Assembly (NCBI GenBank): GCA_965216465.1
Contig: CBDCFW010000006.1
Location: 416,723-480,722, forward strand
DNA: 64,000 bases
DNA from: Bacteroidia bacterium
GTDB taxonomy: Bacteria; Bacteroidota; Bacteroidia; NS11-12g; UBA9320
Direction of reading: 5' to 3'
Both the position numbers and the translations under genes were made by a program. Below the pieces are notes generated by a model. It did not search any database, was not told the origin of the DNA, and saw nothing but the letters and a program-made list of their open reading frames with translations. Shown in pieces: positions 32,589-32,681 of this stretch. Numbering within the stretch: position 1 is the first letter of the stretch; each line of letters opens with the position of its first letter.

Positions 32589-32620
32589 GATCTAAAGCAC
32601 ATTTTTAAAATATTTTTTAA

Positions 32621-32641
32621 CTACGCAGAAATACTGCGTAG
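32621..32641. promoter_or_regulatory. palindromic operator CTACGCA-N7-TGCGTAG (copy 2), ~40 nt upstream of rtcB
   Basis: Direct reading. Identical half-sites and the same downstream AATCTTTGTA...ACAAAACG context as at 28934-28954. Confidence 0.7.
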
Positions 32642-32681
32642 ACACTTCTGAATCTTTGTAGTACATTAACAAAACGAAAAA

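Follow-up and report, generated by a model that had tools for sequence, protein, structure and literature searches.

Why would one palindrome stand both in front of an RNA ligase gene and in front of a long array of tRNA genes? The question is raised by a window of 64 kb, the whole stretch of Bacteroidia DNA analysed here, in which CTACGCA-N7-TGCGTAG lies immediately upstream of rtcB and again ahead of a tRNA array. To our knowledge, the path from the sensing of RNA damage to repair has been described in molecular detail in bacteria only for RtcR of the enterobacteria. Judged by its sequence conservation, the palindrome before rtcB is a real regulatory DNA site, common to many RNA-repair genes and extra tRNA genes of Bacteroidota. 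Our preferred reading, to which we assign a probability of about 0.6 with its activation mechanism included, is that the site would be a transcription-factor operator through which a WYL-domain protein activates an RNA-repair regulon found across Bacteroidota.

Two transcription units with a common module

The locus comprises two transcription units, each headed by a module of the palindrome and the box AATCTTTG. Copy 1 of the operator (CTACGCA-AAAACAC-TGCGTAG, 28934-28954) lies between the divergent gene of an HTH-WYL-WCX-PhyH regulator and the unit formed by the tRNA array and an SPFH gene. The array (29062-30712, + strand) contains 17 tRNAs recognized by ARAGORN and three to four weaker tRNA-like genes. 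The last gene of the unit encodes an SPFH/Band-7 protein (31446-32546, +; Pfam Band_7, E = 5.7e-25), and the unit ends at an intrinsic terminator (32559-32588, +; -17.1 kcal/mol, z = -3.97) that consists of a 12-bp stem and a U run. Between array and SPFH gene, the segment 30937-31168 (+) gives weak, sub-threshold matches to YrlA (35 and 26.7 bits) and to tRNA (30.8 bits), in the sub-spans 30937-31001 and 31045-31168. These may mark a tRNA-like ncRNA that works with the SPFH protein, and in other loci a single tRNA gene (34-70 bits) precedes SPFH at this very position.

The second unit is headed by copy 2 (CTACGCA-GAAATAC-TGCGTAG, 32621-32641), which lies downstream of the SPFH stop codon (32546) and the strong terminator that follows it, and 40 nt ahead of the rtcB ATG (32682). 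It encodes the RNA ligase RtcB (32682-33842, +; Pfam RtcB, E = 3.6e-112; NCBIfam RtcB family) and the nucleotidyltransferase RlaP (PF10127; 33896-34657, +; Pfam RlaP, E = 6.2e-71), and it closes with an intrinsic terminator (34656-34683, +; a 12-bp stem with 9 GC pairs, then TTAATTT). Damaged tRNA halves are substrates to which RlaP adds nucleotides (PMC12776372). According to Pfam, RtcB, RlaP and the SPFH/Band-7 protein are encoded together in the window, and the trio recurs in many of the homologous loci. RNA-repair neighbourhoods combining SPFH/Band-7, a tRNA-like RNA, RtcB and RlaP were reportedly surveyed by Burroughs and Aravind in 2016, in a study of gene neighbourhoods that is not known to contain the present operator or its promoter architecture. 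The two units of the window share SPFH, RtcB and RlaP with those neighbourhoods, and possibly the tRNA-like RNAs.

Even when up to two mismatches are tolerated, CTACGCA-N7-TGCGTAG is matched at exactly two places of the window, where shuffled windows lead one to expect 0.05; two or more matches were obtained in 0 of 100 shuffles. The relaxed core CGCA-N7-TGCG returns the same two sites and none further, and unpaired half-sites at 15135, 35944 and 36135 were attributed to chance. Both arms are identical between the copies, and the spacers agree at five of seven bases. When the copies are aligned on the palindrome, the sole further block that they have in common is AATCTTTGTA, 9 nt after the palindrome in both; the 9-nt gap is not conserved and the remaining flanks are unlike. 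The first-pass annotation of this DNA had described copy 2 as the palindrome of copy 1 repeated upstream of rtcB, behind the SPFH terminator and in the same flanking context. The exact match and the position are borne out, and the common context is the AATCTTTGTA block at equal distance. The span then reported, 32615-32670, takes in copy 2 together with its -7 box. Since the same operator/-7-box module heads both units, they appear to belong to one regulon in this genome.

Several further features of the locus were recorded. Weak tRNA-like genes missed by ARAGORN (29534-29601, 29931-30007 and 30017-30090; 31-38 bits) fill gaps in the array and bring its size to about 20-21 units, not 17. A 10-bp, GC-rich leader hairpin (CCCTCGAGC...GCTCGAGGG, 29019-29044), with no T run after it on the + strand, lies between the predicted start (~28976) and the first tRNA (29062) and could be a processing or regulatory element. 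Near the RNA-repair locus are encoded a Zeta-toxin-like kinase (37284-37931, -), a PIN_8 nuclease (38917-39957), an AbiEii-like AAA_21 ATPase (41760-42893) and a type I restriction R subunit (61663-63912, -), so that the locus adjoins a defence or toxin island. The window also encodes a T9SS CHU_C protein.

Conservation of the operator across Bacteroidota

The three-domain WYL-WCX-PhyH protein has thousands of homologues in Bacteroidota. In a comparative set of 80 genome loci encoding this regulator (1.35 Mb), the core pattern RCGCA-N7-TGCGY occurs 121 times, compared with 2-6 occurrences for scrambled, N6 and N8 controls. At least one copy is present in 72 of the 80 loci, and palindromes with no more than two mismatches to that of the window recur in most of them. 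Almost all core copies (116/121, p ~1e-72) are intergenic, that is, outside ORFs of at least 120 aa, which cover 79 % of the DNA. Fifty-five copies, in 55 of the 80 loci, stand ahead of the regulator gene, at 27-62 nt (mode 38) from its start. The remaining copies precede genes for RtcB (three paralogue classes), RlaP, Ro60/TROVE, a DUF2828-vWA protein and SPFH, as well as single tRNA genes, tRNA arrays and recurrent ORFs of ~190-200 aa. In front of the rtcB orthologues of L001, L021 and L079, which share 61-80 % identity with that of the window, the palindrome, corresponding to copy 2, and an ATCTTTG box are all that has been kept.

Small ORFs of ~187-206 aa directly 3' of the operator (L013 9328-9906 and its homologues, L083 11283-11846, L113 1919-2536) have no Pfam or NCBIfam match and are candidates for regulon members. 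In two Flavobacteriaceae loci, the orphan Rfam motif Flavo-1 RNA (RF01705) scores above the gathering threshold in the interval from the SPFH stop codon to the operator of rtcB, on the strand opposite those genes (L014 5562-5638 and L024 3415-3491); it is absent from the window.

A scan of metagenome contigs was made with no regulator as anchor, using as its pattern the operator core with an A-rich spacer, 10 nt, and A-NN-TTTG. This combination of operator and -7 box retrieved 120 loci, whose median length is 6.2 kb. The regulator is encoded in 65 of them, RNA-repair proteins in 70 and one or both in 94, while the 26 loci with neither are mostly very short. In some loci that had first seemed to lack these families, the gene directly downstream encodes Hen1, of the Pnkp/Hen1 system, or an RNA ligase of the T4 Rnl1 type, and the regulon therefore appears to reach repair systems that are missing from the window. 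The gene content of the scan loci thus suggests that the motif is specific to an RNA-repair regulon spanning three unrelated ligase systems. Instances of the module before Hen1 or the Rnl1-type ligase are found at L086 7697-9007, L122 2138-3448 and L124 2085-3122.

Probable co-regulation of tRNA arrays and rtcB

The operator also precedes tRNA arrays in the closest relatives of the window (L001 and L060), and in L001, the nearest of them, the orthologue of copy 1 lies 67 nt before the array. Of 22 arrays in loci other than the window, only 5, those of L001 and L060 among them, have the operator directly upstream, and in many loci the arrays are physically associated with the regulator. Control of tRNA arrays by the operator was rejected as a universal rule on that count, several arrays being situated 3' of the regulator gene. 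In L038, L062, L125 and L132, the array follows the regulator gene immediately and on the same strand.

Co-regulation of the array and rtcB is nevertheless well supported, on comparative sequence grounds, but only within the clade of the window. The proposal of the first-pass annotation that rtcB and its nucleotidyltransferase gene are co-regulated with the tRNA-array locus agrees with the presence of the operator before rtcB in many genomes and before arrays in these two relatives. The annotation had further held that no RtcR-type CARF activator is involved, and this too was upheld: the scanned ORFs of the window, which have up to 1,700 aa, contain no RtcR or Sigma54_activat domain, and the -24/-12 box (TGGCAC-N5-TTGC) has no match in 32547-32681, its window-wide count not exceeding that of shuffles.

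Predicted promoter architecture

When all 121 sites are read along the strand with the A-rich spacer, they yield the profile aCTrCGCA-AAAAGAy-TGCGyA, with TAnnTTTG at positions 30-37. The CGCA/TGCG cores are invariant by definition of the search, and a separate palindrome search allowing two mismatches gives a picture that agrees with this profile. Downstream of the palindrome, A31 is found in 98 of the 121 sites and the TTTG bases in 106-117, while 112 sites have a purine at position 42. TAnnTTTG is the -7 box of flavobacterial sigma-A promoters and spans -12 to -5 (PMC9723704), and therefore transcription is expected to start at position 42, which puts the operator at -41 to -21. The distance from site to box is 8 nt in the consensus and 9 nt in the clade of the window, which has one extra base.

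In the window, the sequence and the site profile assign AATCTTTG to a -7 box in both promoters: at 28964-28971 (+) for the tRNA array and SPFH, with a predicted TSS at ~28976, and at 32651-32658 (+) for rtcB, with a predicted TSS at ~32663. Copy 2 is best explained as occupying -42 to -22 of a predicted Bacteroidota sigma-A promoter that would drive rtcB-rlaP. This predicted promoter has no -33 TTG at the proper distance. In the profile, the bases 17-21 nt upstream of the -7 box belong to the CAAAAAG part of the site, where a TTG cannot fit; because the invariant CA and the A-tract fill the place of the -33 TTG, all target promoters are predicted to be devoid of a -33 element. The orientation of the site is equally constrained, with the A-rich strand pointing toward the target gene in 112 of the 121 sites.

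On the regulator-facing side of the proximal sites, the complementary TTTTTG provides a TTG; a weaker TAnnTTTt-like box follows at ~19 nt, and then the ATG. In the window itself, reading of the sequence reveals a perfect TAnnTTTG box, TATCTTTG, that faces the regulator gene 6 nt from the copy 1 palindrome (28920-28927, -) and is a candidate promoter of the regulator. This TTG and the perfect box make autoregulation likely; its sign may be either, since autorepression fits as easily as autoactivation. A sigma-70 promoter scan showed no enrichment and was set aside as irrelevant to Bacteroidota sigma-A.

The candidate regulator

The candidate cognate regulator (27147-28877, -) is a protein of 576 aa that combines a wHTH, a helical bundle, WYL, WCX and PhyH (Pfam WYL, WCX, PhyH). 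Its closest homologue, from a Bacteroidia MAG, is 74-79 % identical. With an AF2 model of pLDDT 80, Foldseek places DriD and PafBC on top for residues 1-340, through alignments to the DriD chains 8tp8 and 9pfq and to PafBC 9fnd (E = 1e-10 to 1e-12, ~355 columns). Residues 350-575 match PhyH-type Fe(II)/2OG hydroxylases (proline hydroxylase, EctD, AviO1 and PHYHD1). A PDB profile search points to the same families with weak E-values. The residues H439-x-D441, H539 and R550 are invariant in 20 homologues, and their spacing, with the arginine 11 residues after the histidine, is what we take to be that of the PhyH iron triad and 2OG-binding arginine; the dioxygenase domain is therefore probably catalytically competent.

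The most conserved part of the regulator is its N-terminal ~70 residues, in line with the conservation of the operator, and K49-R50-T51 at the start of helix 3 is invariant, which is at most a hint of guanine-reading residues like R37 and R41 of DriD. A phmmer search of residues 1-134 against the PDB returned no WYL regulator, so that the wHTH has no sequence similarity to DriD detectable in this way. Short homologues of 333-344 aa without PhyH (L078-L080) retain an unchanged operator, which places DNA recognition in the HTH-WYL-WCX part. NCBIfam contains no model for the regulator or for RlaP, and PADLOC offers generic WYL models only. Our literature search found no description of the operator, of its promoter geometry or of a WYL-PhyH fusion, and no earlier case of a transcription factor joined to a hydroxylase that appears to be active. 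Comparative surveys, as cited in PMC7824862, have linked WYL domains with the ends of RNA and its repair.

The WYL protein very probably binds the operator. It is the best candidate because the site adjoins its gene in 55/80 regulator loci, because it is encoded in 65/120 loci of the regulator-independent scan, and because its structural relative DriD binds a near-identical 7-N7-7 site. Given this likely WYL-type binder, RNA repair in these bacteria would be governed by a switch unlike that of E. coli.

Relation to known regulators

DriD of Caulobacter crescentus binds ATACGAC-N7-GTCGTAT sites with AT-rich centres (PMC13004042, PMC10853764). Its CG-rich half-sites are read by arginines of the recognition helix, among which R37 and R41 read guanines, and the bound DNA has a bend of ~30 degrees (PMC10853764). 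In cryo-EM complexes of DriD with RNA polymerase, the site overlaps the place where a -35 element is lacking, and its distance to the -10 element is the same in every promoter (PMC13004042). A -35-optimised didA construct carries TTGACA at site positions 7-12, from which, with a 17-bp spacer, the -10 element begins at ~position 30, the start of TA in TAnnTTTG here.

The two systems have in common the HTH-WYL-WCX fold of residues 1-340, a 21-bp 7-N7-7 pseudo-palindrome with CG-containing half-sites, a shared TACG and an AT-rich centre, a site that stands in for an absent -35/-33 element at a fixed distance from the -10/-7 element (in a predicted promoter here), and a site in the promoter region of the regulator itself. 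They differ in phylum and in the promoter grammar of the sigma factor, which uses TAnnTTTG in the present case, and in the inner bases of the half-sites, CGCA here and CGAC in DriD. The predicted regulon comprises RNA repair and tRNAs, whereas DriD controls DNA-damage genes in an SOS-independent response, and the regulator of the window has an additional C-terminal PhyH dioxygenase domain. Single-stranded DNA is the known ligand of DriD; by analogy, we infer a single-stranded nucleic acid produced by RNA damage as the ligand here. Viewed in this way, the system may be a DriD-like WYL regulator rewired to RNA repair in another phylum.

In enterobacteria, RtcR, a CARF-AAA+ activator of sigma-54 promoters, controls operons for RtcB, Ro60 and Y RNAs (PMC7790460). 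The Salmonella rsr-yrlBA-rtcBA and E. coli rtcBA operons resemble the present locus in RtcB and, with regard to other Bacteroidota, in Ro60/TROVE, tRNA-like RNAs and RlaP. A further likeness, putative on the side of the present locus, is the induction of RNA repair through a nucleic-acid-sensing regulator that is divergent from its targets. The locus differs from these operons in having no RtcR, no sigma-54 promoter and no rtcA beside rtcB, and in having a WYL sensor domain instead of CARF and a promoter of the sigma-A type.

The RHH protein TrcR of Anabaena sp. PCC 7120 represses an L-type tRNA array and rtcB (PMC8421152, PMC10272220). The placement of a common cis element before a supernumerary tRNA array and rtcB, as in the window and L001, is a functional analogy to TrcR, not homology. 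The TrcR elements are 9-nt direct repeats over the -10 element and TSS, while the operator here is an inverted repeat centred near -31, and the RHH repressor is encoded elsewhere in Anabaena, in contrast to the WYL regulator next door in this locus. BrxR, CapW and PafBC share the HTH-WYL-WCX architecture, the divergent arrangement of regulator and target and a presumed nucleic-acid ligand (PMC11888443), but their targets are BREX/CBASS systems or a mycobacterial DNA-damage regulon instead of RNA-repair genes. PafBC, in addition, is a heterodimer on a non-palindromic site (PMC10853764).

Proposed mechanism and sign of regulation

According to the preferred reading, the operator would be bound by a dimer of the divergently encoded HTH-WYL-WCX-PhyH protein. 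A signal of nucleic-acid damage, probably RNA or tRNA fragments, would bind the WYL domain, by analogy with DriD, and the ligand would set the winged-helix domains free. These would dock on the CGCA/TGCG half-sites across a bendable A-tract, and the bound dimer would help RNA polymerase onto promoters that have no -33 element, resulting in activation. The operator/-7-box module at 28934-28971 would drive the tRNA array, the tRNA-like genes and SPFH in this manner. We lean towards ligand-triggered activation because of the geometry and the TACG shared with DriD, the absent -33 element and the fixed orientation of the site.

The same protein might instead act as a repressor, its apo-dimer covering the -33 region of both promoters and of its own, blocking RNA polymerase and leaving once a damage ligand binds the WYL domain, in the style of BrxR and CapW and with the logic of TrcR. 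The operator lies across the core promoter, the -7 boxes of the targets are close to consensus and preceded by A/T-rich DNA, so that these promoters may be strong unaided, and the TTG of the putative promoter of the regulator lies within the operator spacer, all of which would suit such a role. There are precedents as well, in the WYL repressors BrxR and CapW on record in defence systems (PMC11888443) and in the co-regulation of the Anabaena L-array and rtcB by the repressor TrcR (PMC10272220). However, the nearest structural relatives, DriD and PafBC, are activators, the geometry of the site and its distance to the -10/-7 element are those of DriD activation complexes, and all target promoters are without the -33 TTG. 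The orientation of the spacer relative to the -7 box, fixed in 112/121 sites, likewise suggests productive contact with polymerase over mere occlusion. On balance we regard repression as the less likely reading, but as one to be taken seriously.

It is improbable that the operator belongs to an unlinked factor, such as the Crp-like protein encoded at 25953-26768, with the WYL protein as a co-regulated member of the regulon. Although the gene of this Crp/cNMP-binding regulator is located 380 bp from the WYL gene, it is found, like other neighbours of the window, in 0 of the 80 homologous loci, and the Crp-like neighbour was accordingly rejected as the binder. The WYL regulator, by contrast, adjoins the site and is present in anchor-free loci at the frequencies given above; a 7-N7-7 site of the TACG type fits the DriD class and not CRP/FNR boxes, and regulator forms lacking PhyH retain the same operator.

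That the palindrome is an RNA hairpin of read-through transcripts (a terminator, processing site or attenuator) or a non-regulatory dispersed repeat is barely credible. It can fold into a hairpin of 7-8 bp (-8.7 to -12.1 kcal/mol), and copy 1 was picked up on the minus strand in a scan for terminators. The symmetric positions 3/19, however, would form an A-C mismatch in 48 of 121 sites, with 66 Watson-Crick pairs where 54 would be expected under independence, and the bases of the loop make up an A-tract of conserved sequence and orientation. The predicted TSS comes only after the site, the distance to the -7 box is fixed, no T run follows in the direction of the gene, and a dispersed repeat would have to account for two copies only in 64 kb, both at the RNA-repair locus. 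The hairpin reading was rejected because the half-sites vary without stem-like covariation. Phylum-wide occurrence, intergenic position, a fixed distance to the box and this lack of RNA-stem covariation are the reasons why the palindrome appears to behave as a protein operator.

Implications for RNA repair in Bacteroidota

Taken further, these results allow a tentative view of an "RNA SOS response" in Bacteroidota, in which a single fusion of WYL regulator and dioxygenase would sense damaged RNA or tRNA fragments and switch on RNA repair. Its targets could perhaps include three unrelated repair systems (RtcB-RlaP-SPFH, Pnkp/Hen1 and the Rnl1-type ligase), spare tRNA arrays, and Ro60 together with tRNA-like RNAs. 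The switch would operate by DriD-like recruitment of polymerase, and the dioxygenase, apparently active, would either report O2, Fe or 2OG status as another input or modify the ligand chemically. If true, this would be the third independent coupling of RNA damage, repair and tRNA resupply, after RtcR and TrcR. It would also carry the newly solved activation mechanism of DriD to another phylum, to another sigma-factor grammar and to responses to RNA damage, and it draws attention to an unstudied fusion of regulator and dioxygenase.

Across the phylum, with marine flavobacteria and Bacteroidales of the human gut among its members, the operator offers a testable handle on the sensing of RNA damage and on the purpose of supernumerary tRNA arrays: a 21-bp site with a defined promoter geometry and a named candidate regulator, and a predicted regulon that links the arrays to RtcB, Hen1, Rnl1, Ro60 and RlaP. 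Published transcriptomes of gut Bacteroides are a possible test bed for this regulon. Several loci of the regulator-independent scan come from human-gut metagenomes; the operator occurs with rtcB on the gut contigs L107, L109, L135 and L156, and L107 and L109 encode the regulator as well.
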